Source of the DNA: Escherichia phage vB_EcoS_ESCO41
DNA length: 50,800 nt
Sequence record: NC_047820.1
Direction: 5' to 3' (one strand)
The notes under the pieces were generated by a model. It was not told where the DNA came from and ran no database searches. It saw only the letters and a program-made list of their open reading frames with translations. A program made the position numbers and the translations under genes. Below, piece after piece: positions 7,289 to 50,800 of the stretch; the stretch's first letter is position 1; each line of letters opens with the position of its first letter.

Positions 7289-7366
7289 GCTCCGCTAGCT
7301 CAATTGGAAAGAAGCAACGACCTTCTAAGTCGTAGGTTACTGGTTCGAACCCAGTGCGGAGCGCCA
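7289..7366 (+). tRNA. tRNA-Arg (anticodon UCU)
   Basis: Acceptor GCTCCGC/GCGGAGC, anticodon stem ACGAC/GTCGT with loop CTTCTAA, T-arm ACTGG-TTCGAAC-CCAGT, encoded CCA; D-arm irregular. Confidence 0.75.
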
Positions 7367-31035: not shown

Positions 31036-31165
31036 TTCCGCGAAAAATGATATACGCGCTGTTACGCTGATTTACGCAATGGTTACATTAAAATATCTAT
31101 ATATATCAACCTTTTACTCTTATTATTATTATTATATATATTACTGTGTATATCATGTAACTACT
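31036..31165. repeat. AT-rich element paralogous to 252-344: ATACGC-type repeats, (TTA)n tract, TACTGTGTA motif
   Basis: Aligned by eye to the left-end element; lies between divergent transcription units. Confidence 0.55.
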
Positions 31166-38060: not shown

Positions 38061-39242
38061 ATGTTGCCTATCGAGAAGTTGGTTGCGAACTTCGATAAAG
38101 AAAGAATCAAACAAATTCAGAGAGATTATCAGTTTGGCGAGATAACCCCTTACGAATTCCAGTGCGTTACATTTGATGCAATTGGAAAGGCTATTGGGAA
38201 GTATGAGGCCCCATTTATAGCAGACCTTTCCGTTTCTGCGGGTAAGACAATTATTCTTGCCATGATTGGTAAGCGCATGGAGCAATTAGGGTTGCCTTAT
38301 ATGGTTCTTTCTCGCCAGTCAGAGATAATCAGCCAGAACTCAGAAGAGCTCCGTAATTTCGGTATCCGTAACAGCGTATATTGCGCTGGCCTTAACGTTA
38401 AATCAGTTTACTACCCAACCATAGTGGCTAGTGAGGGTACGGCAGCCAATGGCTTATTTAAGGGGCTTGGTGACTATGTTCCTGCGGTTATCGCTATAGA
38501 TGAATGTCACATGCTTGATACCATAGATATTGTGGAAGCCGAAGAGAATGAAGAAACATTTGAGCAAATGAGCACAAAGAAAGGCGAGATGGTTTTTAAG
38601 GATGGCGTTAATACTGGATTGCTTGGTACTGGTCGTGCGCAGTACACGCTAATAATCACTGAGATGAAGCGTCGCTGCCGTGAAAAATACGGGCGGGAGC
38701 TTCGTATATTCGGCCTTACTGGTAGCCCTTATCGAAACAATGACCATATCGTCGTTAGCAATCCAAACATCCGTGGGTTCTGGCGAAAAACTGTGATTCA
38801 GGTTCCAACAAATTACCTTGTTGATTTGGGATTCGTGGTTCCTACTGTTTATGGCGAGGTTGGCGATTTAGGTTATGACCTTAGCGAGTTTGAGCCTGAC
38901 GGAAGCGATGGTGTGAAAGATTTCAGCAAGAAAGAAATGGATGCGATGGCTGCAAAGATTCACGACAATCAGTCAATGACTCAAAAAATAATGGGGTTTG
39001 TTGTAAAAATACTAGAGACTCGTAACGCCGCGCTGGTTACATGCGCTGGCAAGTTGCACTGCAGTGAAGCGGCTGCCGCACTGCCTGATGGATACCCTTA
39101 CGCAATCATTACTGATTCTACTGGCGAGAAAAAACGACGTGAGATTCTATCTGATTGCCAGACAGGTAAGTACAAAATAATATTCCAAATTGGGTGTCTA
39201 ACTACGGGCGTTTCGGTCCCGCCCTTACGCAATCATTACTGA
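38061..39242 (+). CDS. SF2 helicase, N-terminal part (reading frame broken by 127-bp tandem duplication)
   Basis: Walker A SVSAGKTI, DEAD-box-like AIDECHM; ORF stops 21 nt into the second repeat copy. Confidence 0.65.
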   Translation: MLPIEKLVANFDKERIKQIQRDYQFGEITPYEFQCVTFDAIGKAIGKYEAPFIADLSVSAGKTIILAMIGKRMEQLGLPYMVLSRQSEIISQNSEELRNFGIRNSVYCAGLNVKSVYYPTIVASEGTAANGLFKGLGDYVPAVIAIDECHMLDTIDIVEAEENEETFEQMSTKKGEMVFKDGVNTGLLGTGRAQYTLIITEMKRRCREKYGRELRIFGLTGSPYRNNDHIVVSNPNIRGFWRKTVIQVPTNYLVDLGFVVPTVYGEVGDLGYDLSEFEPDGSDGVKDFSKKEMDAMAAKIHDNQSMTQKIMGFVVKILETRNAALVTCAGKLHCSEAAAALPDGYPYAIITDSTGEKKRREILSDCQTGKYKIIFQIGCLTTGVSVPPLRNHY

Positions 39243-39348
39243 TTCTACTGGCGAGAAAAAACGACGTGAGATTCTATCTGATTGCCAGACAGGTAAGTAC
39301 AAAATAATATTCCAAATTGGGTGTCTAACTACGGGCGTTTCGGTCCCG
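39095..39348 (+). repeat. perfect tandem duplication, 2 x 127 bp (39095-39221 and 39222-39348), inside the helicase gene
   Basis: Base-by-base comparison; 127 is not a multiple of 3; deleting one copy restores a single ORF 38061..40182. Confidence 0.85.
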
Positions 39349-39369
39349 CCGTGGGACACAAGCGTTGTA

Positions 39370-40182
39370 TTGAGAAAGATTGGTAGCTTAACTCTCATGA
39401 TTCAGCTTCTTGGGCGAGGCATGCGAATTCTAAAGAAAAAGCATATAGAAATGGGGATGAAAAAAGATGATCACCTTGTTCTAGACTTCGCCGGCGCACT
39501 TGACGATATGGCCGAACTTTACTTTGACCCAATCATTGAAGAAATTCAGGCTGAGAAGTTCAAGTCCTCAAGGAAAGGTGGTGATGAGGTCCGGCAGTGC
39601 CCGCAGTGTGGATATGAGAACTCACCATTTGCTCGACGCTGTAGCAACAAGATTGATGGAAAGCGCTGTGAGCACTTTTTCAGCTTTACGGTTTGTGAAG
39701 ATATTACTGACCCACAAACAAAGTCCGTCATCAAGAAAGGTTGCGGTACTCGCAACGACATAGCAGCAAAGGTTTGTCGTGAATGCGGAGAAATGCTTAA
39801 AGACCCTAATGCTAATCTAACCGGTAAGATGTATCGTCGTGGTGATTACCTCCGAGTTTATGATTTTCAAGTTGGTTTAAGTAAGAACCAGACTGGAATA
39901 GTTGTTAAATACAACATCATGGCGCATAACGGAGAGCGGTTTAATGCTTGGGAGTTCTTTAATCCAGAATCAGACCATCGAGTTTGCAGCGTGCTTTGGA
40001 AAAATTTCTGCCTATCCCATATTGAGAATCGCACAGAAGCAGCACGAATTGCTAAACTTCGCAGCGCAAAAATGATTATGATGAACGTAGATAAATTCCG
40101 TGCTCCTGTGCAGGTAACTCACAGAAAGAATGGCAAAGGAAAGGACATAATAGCTTTTAAGAATTTTGGAGAATTATTATGA
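39370..40182 (+). CDS. SF2 helicase, C-terminal part (motif VI plus Cys-rich zinc-finger-like region); possibly a pseudogene fragment
   Basis: QLLGRGMR helicase motif VI; CPQCG..RRCSNK..CEHF and CGTRND..CRECG; frame continuous with upstream ORF if one repeat copy is removed. Confidence 0.55.
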   Translation: MRKIGSLTLMIQLLGRGMRILKKKHIEMGMKKDDHLVLDFAGALDDMAELYFDPIIEEIQAEKFKSSRKGGDEVRQCPQCGYENSPFARRCSNKIDGKRCEHFFSFTVCEDITDPQTKSVIKKGCGTRNDIAAKVCRECGEMLKDPNANLTGKMYRRGDYLRVYDFQVGLSKNQTGIVVKYNIMAHNGERFNAWEFFNPESDHRVCSVLWKNFCLSHIENRTEAARIAKLRSAKMIMMNVDKFRAPVQVTHRKNGKGKDIIAFKNFGELL

Positions 40183-40655
40183 ATTGGAATGAGTGTTTTT
40201 ACTATGACAATGGCGTTTTGAGGTGGAAAATCCGCAGGGCTAATTGCGTTAAAATTGGTGACGAGGTCGGATTTAAACACGAGAGAGAGGGTTATAGGTT
40301 TTTCTGTAGGGACAGAAAACAATACTCTACACACAGAGTAATATGGGAAATGTTTTACGGACCAATACCGAAGGGCATGGAGATAGATCACATTAATCAC
40401 GTTAGGGATGACAATAGAATAGAAAACCTTAGACTTGTAAGTAAGCAATCAAATATGGAGAACAAATCGAAATACAAGAACAACAAAAGCGGATTTACTG
40501 GAGTGAGCTTCGAAAGTAAGTCTGGTCGGTGGTCTGTGAGTGTTGGGTCAAAAAGATACGGAAGATTCGATAACATCGAGCACGCAAAAATATGCGCAAT
40601 GATAGTTAGGGCTGAACTTGGATACCACGATAACCATGGGGATTATTTCCAGTGA
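40179..40655 (+). CDS. HNH homing endonuclease
   Basis: IDHINHVRDDNRIENLRL motif; paralog of 10187 and 12823 genes. Confidence 0.75.
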   Translation: MNWNECFYYDNGVLRWKIRRANCVKIGDEVGFKHEREGYRFFCRDRKQYSTHRVIWEMFYGPIPKGMEIDHINHVRDDNRIENLRLVSKQSNMENKSKYKNNKSGFTGVSFESKSGRWSVSVGSKRYGRFDNIEHAKICAMIVRAELGYHDNHGDYFQ

Positions 40656-41071
40656 ATATTACAGATAAGGTTGATTACATTGAGTTTTACCCGGGCCCTG
40701 TTAAATCATGCCCAAAGGAGGATGACGAACAAATATTTTGCTCTGATTGGGTTAAGTATAACTATCCAGAGATGGTATTTTTCCACTGCGTGAATGAGGG
40801 TAAGAAAACCATTGGACAAGCAAGAAAGGACCAGGCTAAAGGATTGCTTAAGGGGGTTTCGGACTGCTTATTCCTGATGCCTGAATCGCTGCGTGGCAAA
40901 TACCCTTTCGGTGCCATAGAGCTAAAGAGAGCAGGAAAAACCCAAGCAAGCCCAGTCAGTGACGAACAGAAGTCATTCCTTAAAAGCGTAAGGGAATCAG
41001 GAGGTTTTGCTGGGGTTGCCTACGGGCGTGAAGGTTTTCTTGCGGCATTTAAAGAGATGATTTCAAAATAG
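40652..41071 (+). CDS. VRR-NUC-like nuclease domain protein (putative)
   Basis: PD-(D/E)xK-like pattern around ..FLMPE..GAIELKRAGK..; low-certainty motif reading. Confidence 0.4.
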   Translation: MNITDKVDYIEFYPGPVKSCPKEDDEQIFCSDWVKYNYPEMVFFHCVNEGKKTIGQARKDQAKGLLKGVSDCLFLMPESLRGKYPFGAIELKRAGKTQASPVSDEQKSFLKSVRESGGFAGVAYGREGFLAAFKEMISK

Positions 41072-41150: not shown

Positions 41151-41423
41151 ATGAAAAAGTCAATCATCGCTCTACTGGCAGTTGTGGCAATGGCAGGTTG
41201 TGCAGAAGATACCAAGTTTTACGATTGCGGCAAGGAATCCTTCACAGTAACCAAGTCACAGATTGTTTCAGATAAGGGCGTTGTTATTGAGCGTGAAGGC
41301 GATCACTACGAACTGCAAACTTTCTTAGGGAAGGCAGTTTACAACGTGACTGAAAGTCAGGTCAAAGTTAGCGTCGGCGGGTTCGTCGCTGTGAATAACT
41401 GCAAAGTTACCGAGGTTAAATGA
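41151..41423 (+). CDS. small lipoprotein (90 aa)
   Basis: MKKSIIALLAVVAMAGCAED: signal peptide plus lipobox. Confidence 0.55.
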   Translation: MKKSIIALLAVVAMAGCAEDTKFYDCGKESFTVTKSQIVSDKGVVIEREGDHYELQTFLGKAVYNVTESQVKVSVGGFVAVNNCKVTEVK

Positions 41424-41424
41424 G

Positions 41425-42153
41425 ATGATCGACTCAAATGACAAAGATACCCATGACGCATTCGTTAGCTTTGAACAGATCGAGCGTGAAAACTTTGTTA
41501 CCAATGCGCTTGTTCCTGGGAACGGTCATTACCAGGCGGTCAAGCCTGATACCTTCTATCAGGTAACTGGAAACCGATATGCCGGAAGCAAGACGCCTGA
41601 CGCAGTTCGTGACCTATGGGCCACTGACAGAGAAGTAATCTCATGGATGGAGCTTCGTTATGGGAAGTATGACATTGACGCCGCCGACAGCGCTAACAAT
41701 GCTGTTTGCGAAAAGTTCTACAGCGAACAAGTGAACTGCCTAAAAATCTGGTGGGGTAGCAATAAGCACATCTGGCTTAATCCGCCGTACTCACATCCAG
41801 ATCCTTTCGTGAAGAAAGCGATTGAACAAATGGAGCACAACAATCAGATTGATATGTTGCTTCCTGGTGATAACTCTACGGCATGGTTTGCCGAGGCCAG
41901 ACGCAACGCGGCTGAAATCATCTGGATTGAGGCGGACATCACAGAGATTGACAGTCAGGAATATTGCCGGACGGGGCGGTTGGCATTCATCTCTGGACTG
42001 ACCGGAAAGCCTGTCGATGGCAACAATAAAGGTAGCGTTATTTTTGTCATGCGAAAACTGCAAGAAGGCGAGACGCAGAAAACGACATACGTTAGCGTTG
42101 CCGATATTTGTCCTGGCGTAAGCCGCAAGAAACCACGTAAGCGGAGTGTTTAA
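41425..42153 (+). CDS. DNA N6-adenine methyltransferase (Dam-like)
   Basis: Catalytic NPPY motif in IWLNPPYSHPD; 242 aa. Confidence 0.65.
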   Translation: MIDSNDKDTHDAFVSFEQIERENFVTNALVPGNGHYQAVKPDTFYQVTGNRYAGSKTPDAVRDLWATDREVISWMELRYGKYDIDAADSANNAVCEKFYSEQVNCLKIWWGSNKHIWLNPPYSHPDPFVKKAIEQMEHNNQIDMLLPGDNSTAWFAEARRNAAEIIWIEADITEIDSQEYCRTGRLAFISGLTGKPVDGNNKGSVIFVMRKLQEGETQKTTYVSVADICPGVSRKKPRKRSV

Positions 42154-45461: not shown

Positions 45462-45838
45462 TCGCATCGGCAGTATTGCTGTCCATTTTTTTAACGGGTT
45501 GTTCGGCAACATCTGCTCTGACTGGTTTGATTGGCAGCAAGCCAGAAATTAGCGCACAGGCTGGGGCCGAAAACGTGAAGCAAACGGTAGGCGTTACCGG
45601 AAAGGTGGATAAGTCAAACGACAACGACACCACTATCAAAGATTCAAAGGTAGGAAAGGTTGATACGTCAAACGGGAAGTCTGTCAGCACATCAAGCATC
45701 AAGGCTGACACCATCATCGCTGATAAGATTGAGATCAGGAATGACTCAAAAGGCAATCTGATTGCTGGACTGGTATTCCTGTTCATCGGTATTCTGATGG
45801 TAATTTTCTATCTATGGCTGGAACGACGCAAAAAATAA
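45437..45838 (+). CDS. unimolecular spanin (T1 gp11-type)
   Basis: N-terminal lipoprotein signal with lipobox LTGC and C-terminal transmembrane segment in a single 133-aa protein; overlaps endolysin 3' end. Confidence 0.65.
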   Translation: MFKRNWKVVASAVLLSIFLTGCSATSALTGLIGSKPEISAQAGAENVKQTVGVTGKVDKSNDNDTTIKDSKVGKVDTSNGKSVSTSSIKADTIIADKIEIRNDSKGNLIAGLVFLFIGILMVIFYLWLERRKK

Positions 45839-45840
45839 AA

Positions 45841-45864
45841 GGAGCCGAAAGGCTCCCTTTTTTT
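45841..45864. terminator. bidirectional terminator
   Basis: GGAGCC-gaaa-GGCTCC with T-runs on both sides; identical hairpin to 15014. Confidence 0.7.
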
Positions 45865-46057
45865 ATCCAAATCTTTGCACCAGCAGCAACAATTCACCTT
45901 CATTATTGCACAGTGTATGCTCATCACGACGTCCGGCACGCATGGATGAGTTAAGAATTGAAAGAAGGGCTTGATTAATCCCATCCTCACTGATGCCATT
46001 CTCAGAACTGCATCTGATTATCGCGTCGATTACAACCTGGCTTTCCGAATAACTCAT
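45863..46057 (-). CDS. hypothetical protein (64 aa); uncertain
   Basis: ORF overlapping the 3' end of the upstream gene by 56 nt; weak RBS. Confidence 0.3.
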   Translation of the reverse strand: MSYSESQVVIDAIIRCSSENGISEDGINQALLSILNSSMRAGRRDEHTLCNNEGELLLLVQRFG

Positions 46058-46376
46058 TATCGCTCATCTTCTCTATGTTCATCATCTCCCATGTATAGCT
46101 ATCGTTCTCACCGCCATAGCACCTGAAATGAAATTCAAATGGCCTTTTTTGCGCCCCTTTGGACCAGTACCAGTTGTTCACGCCGTCAAGGTATCCTTCG
46201 CCCATGCATCTTGCTATGAACTCCTTTGATGCTGATGATGCGAAGTAGCGAGGCGTAACTCCGGCAGCCTTCGCCAGTCGCTCGCACTCCCTATGCTTGT
46301 ATATGAATACCGCCAGGTGCTGACGATTGAACTTTTTATATCCTTCACAAAACCGGTACACGTCGAGCAGGAACAT
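46002..46376 (-). CDS. hypothetical protein (124 aa)
   Basis: ORF directly downstream of the ATPase gene on the minus strand. Confidence 0.45.
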   Translation of the reverse strand: MFLLDVYRFCEGYKKFNRQHLAVFIYKHRECERLAKAAGVTPRYFASSASKEFIARCMGEGYLDGVNNWYWSKGAQKRPFEFHFRCYGGENDSYTWEMMNIEKMSDNELFGKPGCNRRDNQMQF

Positions 46377-46379
46377 TGT

Positions 46380-47963
46380 TTACCCCAGCAATCTCGGATT
46401 AATGTAAATTTTATCACCAATCAGGCACGTATAGTTCTTCTCATCCAACATAGGGATTAGGTGATCCTTGATGCGAGTCATCACACCAGCTTGCCCTTCA
46501 AAGGGTTTGACCTTACGCGCAGCTTCATATAGGGATCGGACACCTACAACGCCTTTCCCGTTCTTGCCTTGCTTGATCAGTATGTCTATCAGCTTGTTCA
46601 TCTCCGCATGGTCGCCAGCGTGACCAGCGGCGTTGGCAGATGACAGATAAGTCTTACTCAGTTCCTGGAACATAATTACCGCTTCCTGCATTGTGTCAAG
46701 CTCAATCTCTCTGGACTTCTGCGGACTCCCGCCATTGGGATTAAACCAGTTACGCACAGTGTGAAGAACAGCCGCGATCCTGATAGCCTGCTTATCAAAC
46801 TTACCAAGCGCGCCGCGAAGCATTGTGTGTGAATACTTCCCGCCGTCCGCAAGGTGAGGCTCCATATCCTGACGCGCACGGTTGAGATATTTCATCGCCG
46901 ACGTGCTCACTGTCAGGTTTACTTCGTGTTCGCTCATGATCTCATGGACCAGACGGAAGTAGTCCGCCTTGAGTCCGCCATCAATCGGCTCATATGTTGA
47001 TTCGCCTTTCTCATCTACGAACACACGCTCACCAAGGAATGACTTCTCACGCACAAGCAGGAAACGCTCGGATACACCGATACCACGCGCGCCAGCGTTC
47101 ATGATCGCGTTTATCGTTTCATCCTGTGCAATTACAGAGATGCAACCCATCGCAATAAAGCTCATGTTATTGTCTGCGTTCGCACGGGCGATAGATACGT
47201 TACCAGCATCCCACGCCTTAAGCACAAGCTCGCTGTTCGTTTTCTTTGAGCCGTCACCATAGGTCATGCCTAACAGTGAGTTCACGCTCGTTGCTTCATC
47301 CGAGATAACTGCAAAGTTGCCCTGGCGGTTGTTGATTCGCGCAAGACCTTCCGGCGTGGTGTCGGATACGGGGAAAACGATGTCACAGAGTCGTTCAAGT
47401 TTTTCTTCAAGCTCCTCTTTCTCCTCAAACAGAGCCGCCATATCAGATGGTGATTTTTCCTGCTTCATCTCCTTGGATAGAGCGGAGAGCTTAGCCATAA
47501 TCTTCTTGCGGTCACGCTTTCGGATCTCGTTGAGTCGCTCAGTCTCTGCGATCATTGGGGCCAGAGAAAGTGAGTTGATGGCTGATTTACCTGTCGATGG
47601 CGGCTGACTGGTTACGACGTAAAGAGCGGTCGGCTGTTGTGTTCCGTGATACTCAACCGTAAATCGGCCCAGCATGGCGGCTGATATGCATCCGAGGAAA
47701 TGCATGTAAGCGGACGACTCTGGGAACTGAACAGAACGAGCGGCATTGCTTGACAGTTTACCAACGACATCATAATCGTTACCAAGTGAGATAACCGGAT
47801 ATTTGTCACCGCCTGAGTCAATCTCTGTTGGGGCTTTCCAGAACGACTGGCTTTGCCTGTATCCGTTCGCATTGATGGCAACGCGCAGAGGCGGGAGGTT
47901 ATCGGCGGCGGCGACAGCCATGACCTGATCGATTGACAATTTATCTTCGTTGAAATCAAACAT
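46380..47963 (-). CDS. P-loop NTPase, putative replication ATPase/helicase (SF3-like)
   Basis: Walker A SQPPSTGKSA, Walker B FAVISDEA; 527 aa; termini homologous to the 174-aa protein at 1149..1673. Confidence 0.55.
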   Translation of the reverse strand: MFDFNEDKLSIDQVMAVAAADNLPPLRVAINANGYRQSQSFWKAPTEIDSGGDKYPVISLGNDYDVVGKLSSNAARSVQFPESSAYMHFLGCISAAMLGRFTVEYHGTQQPTALYVVTSQPPSTGKSAINSLSLAPMIAETERLNEIRKRDRKKIMAKLSALSKEMKQEKSPSDMAALFEEKEELEEKLERLCDIVFPVSDTTPEGLARINNRQGNFAVISDEATSVNSLLGMTYGDGSKKTNSELVLKAWDAGNVSIARANADNNMSFIAMGCISVIAQDETINAIMNAGARGIGVSERFLLVREKSFLGERVFVDEKGESTYEPIDGGLKADYFRLVHEIMSEHEVNLTVSTSAMKYLNRARQDMEPHLADGGKYSHTMLRGALGKFDKQAIRIAAVLHTVRNWFNPNGGSPQKSREIELDTMQEAVIMFQELSKTYLSSANAAGHAGDHAEMNKLIDILIKQGKNGKGVVGVRSLYEAARKVKPFEGQAGVMTRIKDHLIPMLDEKNYTCLIGDKIYINPRLLG

Positions 47964-47995
47964 CTTATTCTCTCTCGTTGTTATCGATGGGTATA

Positions 47996-48039
47996 AATAT
48001 ACCCGCCGAAGCGGGTATTGTCATTAACAAAAAGTGCTA
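47996..48039 (-). promoter_or_regulatory. palindrome-promoter cassette (minus): TAGCACTTTTTGTTA + 22-23 bp + TATATT
   Basis: Plus 48025-48039 palindrome overlaps upstream stop; hairpin ACCCGC-ttcg-GCGGGT; leader CATCGATAACAACGAGAG. Confidence 0.55.
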
Positions 48040-48246
48040 TTTTTTGAAGTGCCCTGGCGCATAGCATTTTCCATCCTTCTTATGCAAAACCCACCCAGCA
48101 GATTTAAGTTGCCTTGCACAATCAGAAAAGTTCTCGCCAGCAGCGTCCGTATAGTGTGGCATAAAATAATGCCCATCATCATTTGACTCAGTTGAGCACT
48201 TCTTGCAGTCGCAATAAACAGCGATGGAATAACCTGAAATAATCAT
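48037..48246 (-). CDS. hypothetical Cys-containing protein (69 aa)
   Basis: ATGA overlap with upstream gene. Confidence 0.45.
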   Translation of the reverse strand: MIISGYSIAVYCDCKKCSTESNDDGHYFMPHYTDAAGENFSDCARQLKSAGWVLHKKDGKCYAPGHFKK

Positions 48247-48596
48247 TTGTAAGCCGCCTCAAACTTATACATCCCATAACCAACATCATATCCAACCTCA
48301 TCATCGCGAGTGAGTTGCCAGCCGTCGCCGTCATTGTCGTAGATGTAGCCGGCATTACGACCTAATCCAGCGTGCATGGAGATCTGATAGCGCTTTCCTT
48401 CAGTGAATGATTTCTTAAGTGGATTGCTGTGGTCAACTTTTGTACATAGCAGGGTTTTGGTCTTAATGTAGCGCCCCTTGACGTCCAGGTTAACCCACTT
48501 GCCATCAACCTTGATTTGCTCTACATCATCTTTCACTCGAGCTTTAAAGAGTTTATTGTCTGAACTCACGAAGTTCTTTGTCAGTGTGGTAGCCAT
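48243..48596 (-). CDS. hypothetical protein (117 aa); start ATG 48596
   Basis: Leader CATCGAAACGAAACACACC and RBS AAGGAAA precede ATG 48596; ORF-track start 48668 falls in the cassette. Confidence 0.5.
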   Translation of the reverse strand: MATTLTKNFVSSDNKLFKARVKDDVEQIKVDGKWVNLDVKGRYIKTKTLLCTKVDHSNPLKKSFTEGKRYQISMHAGLGRNAGYIYDNDGDGWQLTRDDEVGYDVGYGMYKFEAAYK

Positions 48597-48634
48597 GATT
48601 ATTTTCCTTTGGTGTGTTTCGTTTCGATGAGATG

Positions 48635-48677
48635 AATATACAGGAAAAGCCCCGAAGGGCTTTAGCAATTAGTGCTA
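48635..48677 (-). promoter_or_regulatory. palindrome-promoter cassette (minus): TAGCACTAATTGCTA + 22 bp + TATATT
   Basis: Plus 48663-48677 palindrome overlaps stop of methyltransferase-like gene; hairpin AGCCC-ttcg-GGGCT. Confidence 0.6.
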
Positions 48678-49343
48678 TTTGTTACTTTCATATAGTGCGC
48701 GAGCAAACCCCTCAGGTGTTAATGATCGGAGTACTTTTGTCTTTGCAGACTTTCCGCCGCAGTATTTCCAGGCCCAGAAGAACCCAATGCTCTCGACTGG
48801 CTTTTTAATCGGTTCAACAAATCCATTCCCACACCAAATACATGTCTTTTTATTATAGGCGTTACGAGGGGGCATCCTGGGGTGATAAACTTCATCATGT
48901 TCAACGTAACCGCCATAATCGCAAGGGTGAAAATAGAAGTCAGGCTTACGCCACAGGCTTGAAAGCTTGCCTACCGGATTCTCGACCATCCAGGGTGCCT
49001 GGAAGTGATTTCCGACTTCCTCGACGAGCTTCGCATTAGCCAAGGCATACGCCAGTTCATCCTCACTGCGCTCATGCTGTGATCCAGACTGAGAGAACAG
49101 CGTGCAATCAGGGAATCCGATAACCATCTGCGCCGGAGGCAGGCCGAGTAATTCACACTTGGTGATGAAATCCTTGTCAATCCACATATTGACGTAGTGG
49201 ATGTTCTCATGCTTCATCTTGATATGGTATTCGCCATGATTACCAGAGTCCGCGTTGAAACAGTAGACGGTGTGACCATCTTCCGCCCATGGCAGGCCAG
49301 CGATGCCGGATCCGTCAAAAAGACAATAAATTACCTTTTTCAT
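48675..49343 (-). CDS. compact C5-cytosine methyltransferase-like protein (putative)
   Basis: Motif I-like LFDGSGIAG, motif IV-like GFPDCTLFSQSG (Pro-Cys), motif VI-like ENPVG; only 222 aa, no obvious target-recognition region. Confidence 0.4.
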   Translation of the reverse strand: MKKVIYCLFDGSGIAGLPWAEDGHTVYCFNADSGNHGEYHIKMKHENIHYVNMWIDKDFITKCELLGLPPAQMVIGFPDCTLFSQSGSQHERSEDELAYALANAKLVEEVGNHFQAPWMVENPVGKLSSLWRKPDFYFHPCDYGGYVEHDEVYHPRMPPRNAYNKKTCIWCGNGFVEPIKKPVESIGFFWAWKYCGGKSAKTKVLRSLTPEGFARALYESNK

Positions 49344-49498
49344 TTCTTCTTTTCCTTCTCAATTGCTTTCTGTGTGATTTCGTAACTGCTTTGCAAGTCT
49401 TCAACCTGAGCGCTGGTGCTCCATGGATACCATCCTTGACCTGAGAGCTTCGCGATCGTGTCGTTGTCGTAGTAGTTCAAATCGGATGGCTTGAGCAT
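49340..49498 (-). CDS. small hypothetical protein (52 aa, below ORF-track cutoff)
   Basis: RBS GAGGTGAAATA before ATG; TAATG overlap upstream and ATGA overlap downstream. Confidence 0.3.
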   Translation of the reverse strand: MLKPSDLNYYDNDTIAKLSGQGWYPWSTSAQVEDLQSSYEITQKAIEKEKKK

Positions 49499-49737
49499 TA
49501 TTTCACCTCATCAAACGTTGCGATGCCAGGGATGAACATTCCGACCTTCCATCCTGCGATAGCAATCCAGCCAGAATCGTGCTTGTGCGGTCGCTCAGCG
49601 CCATTAATTACCCACTCGTTCGGGATTGTCTTACCTTTAATGATTAGCGGCTCAGCGTCGTATACAGAGCCTTTTACGAACGGTGTCAAAACTTTCTTGT
49701 CGGTGCTGGTGATGCAATTTGTGCATATTACTTTCAT
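49498..49737 (-). CDS. hypothetical protein (79 aa)
   Basis: ORF with RBS, in coupled gene chain. Confidence 0.45.
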   Translation of the reverse strand: MKVICTNCITSTDKKVLTPFVKGSVYDAEPLIIKGKTIPNEWVINGAERPHKHDSGWIAIAGWKVGMFIPGIATFDEVK

Positions 49738-49746
49738 GTTATCGCC

Positions 49747-49962
49747 TTAGAACGGTATTCCGTCGTCAAATTTTAAGCGGTAGTCGAAATCATCACCGAT
49801 TCCGTCGACTGACTGGTTGCTCTCGCTTTCCAGATCCATATCCATAATGCCGAGAGCGTCATCAAGTTCTATACATCCATAAGCTACCTTGAGCGCCCAC
49901 TCTTCATTAAGTCCGGCTTCAAGTGCCGCGCGGTGGCGGCTCCAGAAATTATCTTGATGCAC
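49747..49962 (-). CDS. small acidic protein ending in SSB-like tail ..FDDGIPF (GTG start)
   Basis: 71 aa, highly acidic; C-terminal DDGIPF mirrors the SSB tail DDIPF of 33240..33683. Confidence 0.4.
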   Translation of the reverse strand: MHQDNFWSRHRAALEAGLNEEWALKVAYGCIELDDALGIMDMDLESESNQSVDGIGDDFDYRLKFDDGIPF

Positions 49963-49964
49963 TG

Positions 49965-50189
49965 TTAGCTCCAGGAATTGATGTAAAGTGAATTGTCGTT
50001 TAACAGGTTGACCATCTCAGCACGGGTAAGGCTACGGATGATTGAGCCTGGATGAGTGCCAACAACGTAGCGGTCGAACTCACGGCGCGTAATGGTTATT
50101 TGGCTTACGCCTGCGGCGCGGTCCAGCTTGACGATTGCACGGCCTTTTGCTTCGATGTGTGCTACTACGTTCTGAGCTTTAACTGACAT
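49965..50189 (-). CDS. hypothetical protein (74 aa)
   Basis: Strong RBS AAGAGGAAG after cassette and leader. Confidence 0.5.
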   Translation of the reverse strand: MSVKAQNVVAHIEAKGRAIVKLDRAAGVSQITITRREFDRYVVGTHPGSIIRSLTRAEMVNLLNDNSLYINSWS

Positions 50190-50227
50190 TTTTACTTCCT
50201 CTTTGTGTACTTCGTTTCGATGAAATT

Positions 50228-50270
50228 ATTATGCCTCAATCCGTGAGGCTTCGTTTAGCAATTCGTGCTA
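50228..50270 (-). promoter_or_regulatory. palindrome-promoter cassette (minus): TAGCACGAATTGCTA + 22 bp + CATAAT
   Basis: Plus 50256-50270 palindrome immediately after upstream stop TAA; leader TTCATCGAAACGAAG. Confidence 0.6.
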
Positions 50271-50271
50271 T

Positions 50272-50703
50272 TTAACGATTTTTTGGTGGTCGTTTATAGT
50301 GAGAATAAAACGGCGTTGGCGGAAAGCATGGCTGATAACCAGTCAGGTTCTGACGTGCCGCTTTACCGAGCGCAACAGCCGCATTTTGCTGAACTCTGGC
50401 AATCTCACCATTGCGGAACAACCGCTCTTTACTGAACCGTCGCCCCATGAACTCAACGGCAAGGTAGTCAATAGGATCTAGCGCCACGCGTTTTTCCATG
50501 AATACCTTTCGGCTTGATGCCAGGAATACTTTGCTGCCTTTCTTGCCGACTGCTGAGCGAATAAGTCTATAGGTTGAATCGACGAACTGGTAATAGAAGC
50601 GCCATGCTCCATAGGACCACACATACATCCGGCCTGACGGAGTAATGAATCTGGTCTTGCCGTCAGCAATGCCCTTATAGATAACTCCGTAAACAATGCT
50701 CAT
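50272..50703 (-). CDS. hypothetical protein (143 aa)
   Basis: ORF with RBS AAGGAGAAATAA. Confidence 0.5.
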   Translation of the reverse strand: MSIVYGVIYKGIADGKTRFITPSGRMYVWSYGAWRFYYQFVDSTYRLIRSAVGKKGSKVFLASSRKVFMEKRVALDPIDYLAVEFMGRRFSKERLFRNGEIARVQQNAAVALGKAARQNLTGYQPCFPPTPFYSHYKRPPKNR

Positions 50704-50736
50704 TTATTTCTCCTTATCTCTCGTTTCTATGAGGTA

Positions 50737-50780
50737 ATAATAGCGAATCCACCATGACTGGTCATTAGCAAAAAGTGCTA
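50737..50780 (-). promoter_or_regulatory. palindrome-promoter cassette (minus): TAGCACTTTTTGCTA + 23 bp + TATTAT
   Basis: Plus 50766-50780 palindrome; leader CATAGAAACGAGAG. Confidence 0.5.
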
Positions 50781-50800
50781 TTCGTTGGATTTATGGATTG

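Follow-up and report, generated by a model that had tools for sequence, protein, structure and literature searches.

A homologue of phage Dcm in vB_EcoS_ESCO41

The best described counterpart of the gene analyzed here, an open reading frame (ORF) for 222 residues on the minus strand of Escherichia phage vB_EcoS_ESCO41 (NC_047820.1), is the dcm gene of the phages KarlJaspers (Bas06) and K42. In KarlJaspers, bas06_0055 is annotated as a “Dcm-like C5 cytosine methyltransferase” of 236 residues, and phage K42, with 95.4% genome identity to Bas06, carries the corresponding 711-bp dcm gene, encoding a near-identical Dcm (bioRxiv 10.1101/2023.08.16.553469). All of the phages that escaped the retron Ec86 had lesions in the K42-type dcm, expressed K42 Dcm had a toxic effect in cells with the retron but not in cells without it, and liquid chromatography-mass spectrometry showed that the enzyme raised 5-methylcytosine (5mC) on the multicopy single-stranded DNA (msDNA) of Ec86, whereas a C82A/E128A/K175A/K176A mutant did not; mutation of the CCTGG site of the msDNA abolished the Ec86 defence (10.1101/2023.08.16.553469). 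Later papers (PMC12916289; PMC12640716) give the same conclusion on K42 Dcm and the retron, citing the published version. Far from protecting the phage, this homologue is documented to trigger retron Ec86/Eco1.

The stretch of DNA that was analyzed, referred to below as the window, comprises 50,800 nucleotides and is a T1-like (Drexlerviridae) phage genome with mosaic blocks 88-91% identical to several E. coli phages. The ORF product is 45% identical to Bas06 Dcm over its full length (E 1e-68), and the two phages have a common synteny in which the methyltransferase gene lies two small ORFs upstream of the gene for a DUF3987 helicase of 527 residues. Judged from its sequence, from a structural model and by analogy with the K42 enzyme, the ORF is likely to encode an active, stand-alone (orphan) DNA cytosine-C5 methyltransferase dependent on S-adenosylmethionine (SAM), a member of the compact “Dcm-like” family of phages.

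Family membership and predicted fold

That the ORF is a real gene could be settled with confidence. Escherichia phage CJ19 (Drexlerviridae, Nouzillyvirus) has the closest deposited ortholog, labelled there a “hypothetical protein,” with an amino acid identity of 98.2%; at the DNA level 52 codons differ between the two genes, 48 of them synonymously and four non-synonymously. The resulting ratio of non-synonymous to synonymous changes (pN/pS) of ~0.02 means that the ORF is an expressed gene under strong purifying selection. A preliminary description, made from the sequence alone, had given its limits and length exactly; it begins with an ATG that shares the sequence ATGA with the stop codon of an upstream ORF of 52 residues, and the equivalent ORF is annotated likewise in CJ19.

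The protein belongs to an already known, widely annotated and partly characterized phage family. Over residues 1-222 it matches the PHROGs family phrog_757, “DNA methyltransferase” (E 3.8e-78), and a tblastn search with the ORF found matches in 1487 phage records, many of them annotated as cytosine methylase, among T1-like phages of Escherichia, Klebsiella, Salmonella and Shigella, phiKO2, rV5-like myoviruses and others. Two different queries gave family sizes of 920 and 3363 clusters at 90% identity, and an exhaustive search gave 825 clusters at 50% identity; the copies found in cellular genomes are prophage-borne. Virtually all full-length members have between 200 and 260 residues, so that a protein of 222 residues is no truncation, and the compactness remarked on in the preliminary description is typical of the family, whose usual length is 215-245 residues.

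The only Pfam family matched by the relatives, 113 of which were scanned, is PF00145, and its threshold is reached transitively: 15 of the 113 match at E≤0.01, and a relative 60% identical to the window protein (P0034) reaches 27.3 bits, above the cut-off of 22. Comparison of family profiles with PDB sequences gave only weak, non-significant C5-related matches, to M.HaeIII (E 0.94 and 0.49) and to DNMT2 (E 0.34), with motifs I, IV and VI in register. When the family alignment was compared with the single E. coli Dcm sequence using hhalign, motif IV alone was aligned (probability 1.9%), and no pairwise similarity of the window protein to E. coli Dcm could be detected; “Dcm-like” therefore denotes function, not close kinship. 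The PDB comparison also returned borneol dehydrogenase (E 0.056), which is non-significant and was discarded.

The AlphaFold (AF2) model is confident, with a predicted local distance difference test (pLDDT) of 89.4 and a predicted template modelling score (pTM) of 0.88; the loop 82-90, following motif IV, has low pLDDT. As modelled, the protein has the fold of a C5-methyltransferase catalytic domain: the top ten Foldseek matches are all C5-methyltransferases, including DNMT3B, the methyltransferase of prophage CP-933R (3g7u), DNMT1 and DNMT3A (E 1e-6 to 4e-5). The catalytic domains of DNMT3A and DNMT3B differ from the window protein in being eukaryotic, in their length of ~280-290 residues and in forming oligomers with regulatory domains, and are only 13-18% identical to it. 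Compared with canonical PF00145 enzymes (M.HhaI, M.HaeIII and E. coli Dcm), the window protein is ~100 residues shorter and lacks the large target-recognition domain; it has Asp for the Pro of “PC” and ENP for ENV, and no QxRxR is recognizable. The assignment to the C5-methyltransferases made in the preliminary description was essentially right and, with the family fold, the order of the motifs and the tested K42/KarlJaspers homologue, is now based on far more than short motifs.

Motifs and catalytic residues

Conservation was assessed in two sets of sequences, 242 relatives and 95 distant representatives of the family (positions of the motifs are given in Table 1). The five residues of the predicted SAM-binding loop, motif I, are each at least 90% conserved among the relatives, and in distant members of the family the first Gly varies. 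C80, the predicted nucleophile, is invariant in both sets (242/242 and 95/95) and aligns with the Cys of PPCQ in M.HaeIII and with C82 of K42/Bas06 Dcm. Motif VI is equally constant, E121-N122-P123 being found in 242/242 relatives, and among the distant representatives E in 95/95, N in 90/95 and P in 94/95. K165 is invariant and T167 nearly invariant in both sets; K165-K166-T167, at the start of a strand, may be a functional counterpart of motif VIII. All four residues replaced in the K42 mutant are conserved in the window protein, C82, E128, K175 and K176 corresponding to C80, E121, K165 and K166.

More broadly, C80, E121, P140 and K165 are invariant also in the distant set, and motif I, T81, G87, K166-T167 and R206-S-L-T-P-x-G-F-A-x-A...N221 are nearly invariant among the relatives. 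The last of these, a motif IX/X-like region, is covered by no significant sequence alignment; R206, S207, T209, P210, G212, A214, A216 and N221 are each conserved in at least 97% of the relatives. The spacing of the motifs resembles that of C5-methyltransferases, with 71 residues from F9 to C80 and 41 from C80 to E121.

Motifs I and VI, and the order and spacing of all three motifs, stood as first described; the “Pro-Cys” of motif IV did not, as the sequence reads Phe-Pro-Asp-Cys and the Pro and Cys are not adjacent. Asp79 takes the place of the canonical Pro (GGPPCQ in M.HaeIII, AFPPCT in the Bas06 homologue), which makes the window protein an Asp type (F-P-D-C) where the tested K42/Bas06 enzyme is a Pro type (F-P-P-C). 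Among the relatives, 128 have Pro directly before the catalytic Cys, 95 (~40%) have Asp and 19 have Ser; the counts for the distant representatives are 69 for Pro, 10 for Glu, 9 for Val and 4 for Asp, and Ser also occurs among them. Because Pro, Asp, Ser, Glu and Val all occur at this position across the family, the family evidently tolerates loss of the “invariant” proline. Asp shows a real, though not strict, tendency to occupy either position 79, before the Cys, or position 82, two residues beyond it.

A second departure from the family consensus concerns positions 161 and 211. The residue at 211 is Glu here as against Arg in the family, and E211 always accompanies N161; D161 and R211 are found together in 232 of the 242 sequences, Bas06 Dcm likewise having R and D, whereas N161 and E211 are found in the window protein and its closest relatives. 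The two residues look like a compensated pair, and the fact that they change together argues for maintained function and against decay.

Target recognition

No separate target-recognition domain was found between motifs VIII and IX. Only ~30-35 residues (173-205), variable and rich in indels, separate the motif-VIII-like KKT strand from the motif-IX-like helix, in keeping with the earlier judgement that the protein is too short for a full domain of this kind. Because this interval is so short, residues 145-160 and 176-195 are the only candidates for target recognition, and on the family alignment these two segments probably set the sequence specificity. They share 38% and 6% of their residues, respectively, with Bas06 Dcm, against 75-79% in the flanking core. 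A second region of high entropy and many indels in the family alignment (residues 55-69 and 91-117) lies in the core. A cluster of cysteines (C141, C168, C171 and C195) was considered as a small zinc-binding recognition module, but of the four only C168 shows good conservation, and the idea was rejected.

By analogy with the proposal for the K42 homologue, the target of the window enzyme may be CCWGG; given how little the variable segments of the two proteins resemble each other, this is uncertain, and the target may differ from that of K42 Dcm. CCWGG occurs 112 times in the window, at a ratio of observed to expected of 0.87 that is uninformative on the target, and GATC 177 times (0.66), a moderate under-representation; the palindrome statistics of the window gave no hint of the target. 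One could speculate, although we think it more doubtful than probable, that the Asp-type subclade (F-P-D-C, here with N161/E211) represents a natural and fully active C5-methyltransferase lacking the “invariant” Pro, with a target different from that of the K42 enzyme and read by ~35-50 variable residues. If true, the Asp-type enzyme would rank among the smallest scaffolds of a sequence-specific cytosine methyltransferase. The literature searched contained no methylome of a T1-like phage and no test of an Asp-type enzyme.

Proposed mechanism

A catalytic mechanism can be proposed by analogy with canonical C5-methyltransferases. SAM would be bound by the FDGSG loop and the N-terminal Rossmann strands, and the target cytosine would be flipped out and attacked at C6 by Cys80, which is part of a flexible loop (residues 77-90). 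Glu121 of the ENP motif would protonate or hold N3/N4, Lys165 and Lys166 would contact the substrate, and the methyl group would be transferred to C5. Nearly the entire protein would thus be catalytic core, the large target-recognition domain being shrunk to residues 145-160 and 176-195.

In the cell, a promoter cassette of the phage would drive transcription of the methyltransferase gene along with a row of small ORFs, and the enzyme, together with the Dam methyltransferase of the phage, would methylate replicating phage DNA as well as other DNA present. The likely benefit would be protection from cytosine-methylation-sensitive restriction in hosts without a matching methylase, and a role in restriction evasion would be plausible. 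The cost, known for the homologue, would be that methylation of msDNA triggers retron Ec86/Eco1.

Alternative explanations

Several points weigh against an active cytosine methyltransferase with the function suggested above. In a scan of Pfam profiles the window protein had no match to PF00145 at E≤1, returning only a spurious 12-bit match to Lipoprotein_15, and there was no match in NCBIfam, in the PADLOC methyltransferase models or among PDB sequences; the matches of the family profiles to PDB sequences remain non-significant (E 0.3-0.9). The profile search proposed in the preliminary description thus came out divided, with a strong match in PHROGs and none in these other collections, and run with Pfam only it would mislead, because only PHROGs matches the protein itself. 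The canonical Pro of Pro-Cys is Asp here, the homologue that was tested being of the Pro-Pro-Cys type, and motif VIII (QxRxR) has no clear sequence equivalent, the invariant K165-K166-T167 occupying the equivalent strand. The evidence on the specificity of K42 Dcm is indirect, coming from site mutants of the msDNA in a dcm+ MG1655 background; the vector control in this background nevertheless had little 5mC on its msDNA (10.1101/2023.08.16.553469). The BASEL study, moreover, found no simple link of these methyltransferase genes with restriction resistance in the Drexlerviridae.

Some of these observations could be taken to mean that the protein is degenerate and non-catalytic, the change of Pro to Asp together with R211E having abolished methyl transfer and left a role in binding DNA or SAM. 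D79 replaces the Pro of “PC,” E211 and N161 replace a near-invariant Arg and Asp, PF00145 is not matched by the window protein itself, and the activity of the homologue speaks for Pro-Pro-Cys enzymes only. Against this stand the pN/pS of ~0.02 in the comparison with CJ19 and the retention of C80, E121, N122, P123 and K165; 114 of the 242 relatives, spread across many phage groups, are of the Asp or Ser type, Glu and Val are found in distant lineages, and N161 and E211 covary in a manner that looks compensatory. Kossykh et al., in 1995, reportedly found that mutants of Pro185 in the EcoRII methyltransferase retain partial activity. Because of the purifying selection and the intact catalytic residues, an inactive protein becomes the less likely explanation, and we consider it improbable.

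An active protein might still use the C5-methyltransferase fold for another chemistry or on another substrate, either transferring a carboxymethyl group from carboxy-S-adenosylmethionine (Cx-SAM), as phage CmoX does, or acting on RNA or tRNA, as DNMT2 does. CmoX usually travels with cmoA, encoding the Cx-SAM synthase, and with an amide ligase (PMC12783734), but a tblastn search of the window with E. coli CmoA gave no homologue (best E 2.1) and the neighbours of the C5 gene have no ligase profile; the homologue, furthermore, made 5mC and acted on DNA, the latter being at odds with an RNA substrate. Either variant appears very unlikely. The gene could also be the methylase half of a restriction-modification or two-component system, a small neighbouring ORF providing the nuclease or the specificity part. 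Split C5-methyltransferases exist (M.AquI), and the neighbours matching phrog_4548, phrog_4448 and phrog_2684 are co-oriented with the gene and have no assigned function. However, scans with Pfam, PHROGs and PADLOC found no nuclease or defence profile in these neighbours, plasmid-expressed K42 Dcm sufficed alone for both methylation and triggering of the retron, a promoter cassette lies between the gene and the downstream ORF, and a family member in a Salmonella prophage has other neighbours, again with no recognizable nuclease. We would give such a system hardly any chance, and an active, stand-alone C5-methyltransferase is the explanation that we prefer.

Implications

The standard Pfam, NCBIfam and PADLOC scans miss this gene, and the evidence assembled here justifies the name DNA cytosine-C5 methyltransferase. 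Phages that carry the gene would be expected to contain 5mC, which affects predictions of restriction sensitivity as well as nanopore and bisulfite data. Retron Ec86/Eco1, which E. coli BL21 carries, would be expected to detect such phages, a point that matters for the prediction of host range. As the family illustrates, nature can dispense with the Pro of Pro-Cys and with a large recognition domain, which is of modest interest for enzyme engineering; this is a property of the known family and no discovery from the window. The remaining interest would lie in the Asp-type active site and in the minimal recognition region, as these appear from the sequence.

Companion Dam gene and neighbouring genes

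A second methyltransferase gene in the window, for which the preliminary description had noted an NPPY-type adenine methylase, encodes a bona fide phage Dam. The NPPY motif comprises residues 119-122 (41779..41790), and the protein matches PF05869 (E 8.3e-59; 198.5 bits against a cut-off of 28.1), TIGR01712 (180.6 bits against a cut-off of 97) and the PADLOC “orphan methyltransferase” model (oMTase; E 2.9e-107). It exceeds both of the curated cut-offs for phage T1-type Dam and shows no notable difference from that type; its specificity is assumed, from the family, to be GATC. Bas06 also pairs its Dcm with a Dam-like methyltransferase, which is 70% identical to the window Dam, and a pair of Dam and C5 enzymes is typical of the Drexlerviridae.

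The C5 gene is surrounded by the small ORFs mentioned above and the DUF3987 helicase gene, and dam by genes for a VRR-NUC protein, a small lipoprotein-like product and an HNH homing-type endonuclease. Profile scans of these neighbours recognized no restriction partner near either gene, which bears out the earlier suggestion of two orphan methyltransferases. The HNH endonuclease ORF (40179..40655, plus strand; phrog_99, E 1e-58) directly follows an interrupted helicase gene and is overlapped by the VRR-NUC nuclease ORF (40652..41071, plus strand; PF08774, E 2e-8); the Dam region follows shortly downstream. An ORF of 90 residues (41151..41423, plus strand) with a lipoprotein-type signal sequence (MKKSIIALLAVVAMAGC...) separates the VRR-NUC gene from dam. 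It has no PADLOC match, and Bas06 has no ORF at this place; it could encode a Cor-like superinfection-exclusion lipoprotein.

Adjacency to helicase genes is seen for the stand-alone methyltransferase gene in several phage groups. In two very large proteins of uncultured Caudovirales in BFVD, A0A6J5SE15 (1397 residues) and A0A6J5NPY6 (1126 residues), the compact methyltransferase fold is one domain (Foldseek E ~1e-10, TMq 0.65); one of the two is named “Helicase/UvrB, N-terminal” in UniProt and the other is uncharacterized.

Table 1. Positions of the methyltransferase genes, their predicted motifs and the repeated cassettes in the window.
Feature	Position	Strand	Basis
Compact C5-cytosine DNA methyltransferase gene (“Dcm-like” family, phrog_757; probable)	48675..49343	minus	ATG start, 222 residues
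Motif I, predicted SAM-binding loop F9-D10-G11-S12-G13 after strand 4-8	49305..49319	minus	translation; aligns with FSGAGG of M.HaeIII
Motif IV, F77-P78-D79-C80-T81; C80 is the predicted catalytic nucleophile	49101..49115	minus	translation and alignments
Motif VI, E121-N122-P123 (equivalent to ENV, with Pro for Val)	48975..48983	minus	translation; aligns with ENV of M.HaeIII, E121 with E128 of K42 Dcm
K165-K166-T167, start of strand 167-172; predicted substrate-binding lysines	48843..48851	minus	aligns with K175/K176 of K42 Dcm
C-terminal helices R206-S-L-T-P-E-G-F-A-R-A ... N221, motif IX/X-like	48678..48728	minus	family conservation
Variable, indel-rich segments (residues 145-160 and 176-195) flanking the conserved KKTCxWxGxGF strand; candidate minimal target-recognition region	48759..48911	minus	family alignment
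Phage Dam-type N6-adenine DNA methyltransferase, 242 residues	41425..42153	plus	PF05869, TIGR01712, phrog_111, PADLOC, NPPY
Cassette AATAGCACGAATTGCTAAA, 20-nt hairpin spacer, CATAAT (element 50254-50272)	50228..50272	minus	one of 19 copies
Cassette overlapping the methyltransferase stop codon (element 48661-48679), with hairpin GCCCTTCGGGGC+TTTT, then -10-like TATATT	48635..48679	minus	repeat analysis
Cassette sites, examples	1884, 2181, 3023, 3911, 5273, 5902, 41067, 42381	plus	repeat analysis
Cassette sites, examples	30195, 48023, 48661, 50254, 50764	minus	repeat analysis

Promoter-like cassettes

The element AATAGCAC-NNN-TTGYTAAA, which holds the dyad TAGCA-N5-TGCTA, occurs in 19 copies in the window, where 0.17 would be expected by chance, and all of the copies are co-oriented with the local genes. 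In ~14 of them the element is followed by a variable spacer of 20 nt, often with a GC hairpin and sometimes with a T-run, by a -10-like hexamer (TATAGT/TATAAT) at a constant distance of 22 nt downstream of TTGYTA, and finally by the conserved leader CATCGAAACGAA. These repeats are probably the promoter cassettes of the phage; the centre of the dyad would then fall near -42, as expected of a class-II activator site.

Two of the copies concern the methyltransferase gene directly. The cassette at 50228..50272 is likely to be the promoter of a unit composed of four small ORFs and the methyltransferase gene. In the cassette that overlaps the methyltransferase stop codon, the hairpin followed by TTTT may act as a terminator and the TATATT may serve the next ORF; the arrangement recurs in CJ19 and in Bas06, the element being found at the equivalent place in both (CJ19, record L001, 6665-6683; Bas06, record L004, 10074-10092, over the dcm stop codon). 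A generic scan of positions 45800-50800 for sigma-70 promoters and terminators gave counts equal to the shuffle expectation; the cassettes emerged from the analysis of repeats.

Other features of the window

The helicase gene preceding the HNH endonuclease ORF (phrog_16 DNA helicase; within 38061..40182, plus strand) contains a perfect tandem duplication with a period of 127 bp, positions 39095-39223 being identical to 39222-39350 in a 129-bp exact match, and is split by it into ORFs of 393 and 261 residues. The helicase of Bas06 is a single ORF of 2040 bp, and deletion of one 127-bp copy restores the frame in the window (...GVSVPPWDTSVVL...). The duplication may be an artefact of assembly; otherwise it would be a recent frameshifting event in a gene that looks essential. 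Elsewhere, the window has a single tRNA gene, for tRNA-Arg with the anticodon TCT (7289..7366, plus strand), and an AT-rich repeat (…TTATTATTATTATTATATATAT…) in two copies, at ~305-345 and ~31121-31160, which have similar flanks and lie ~30.8 kb apart.

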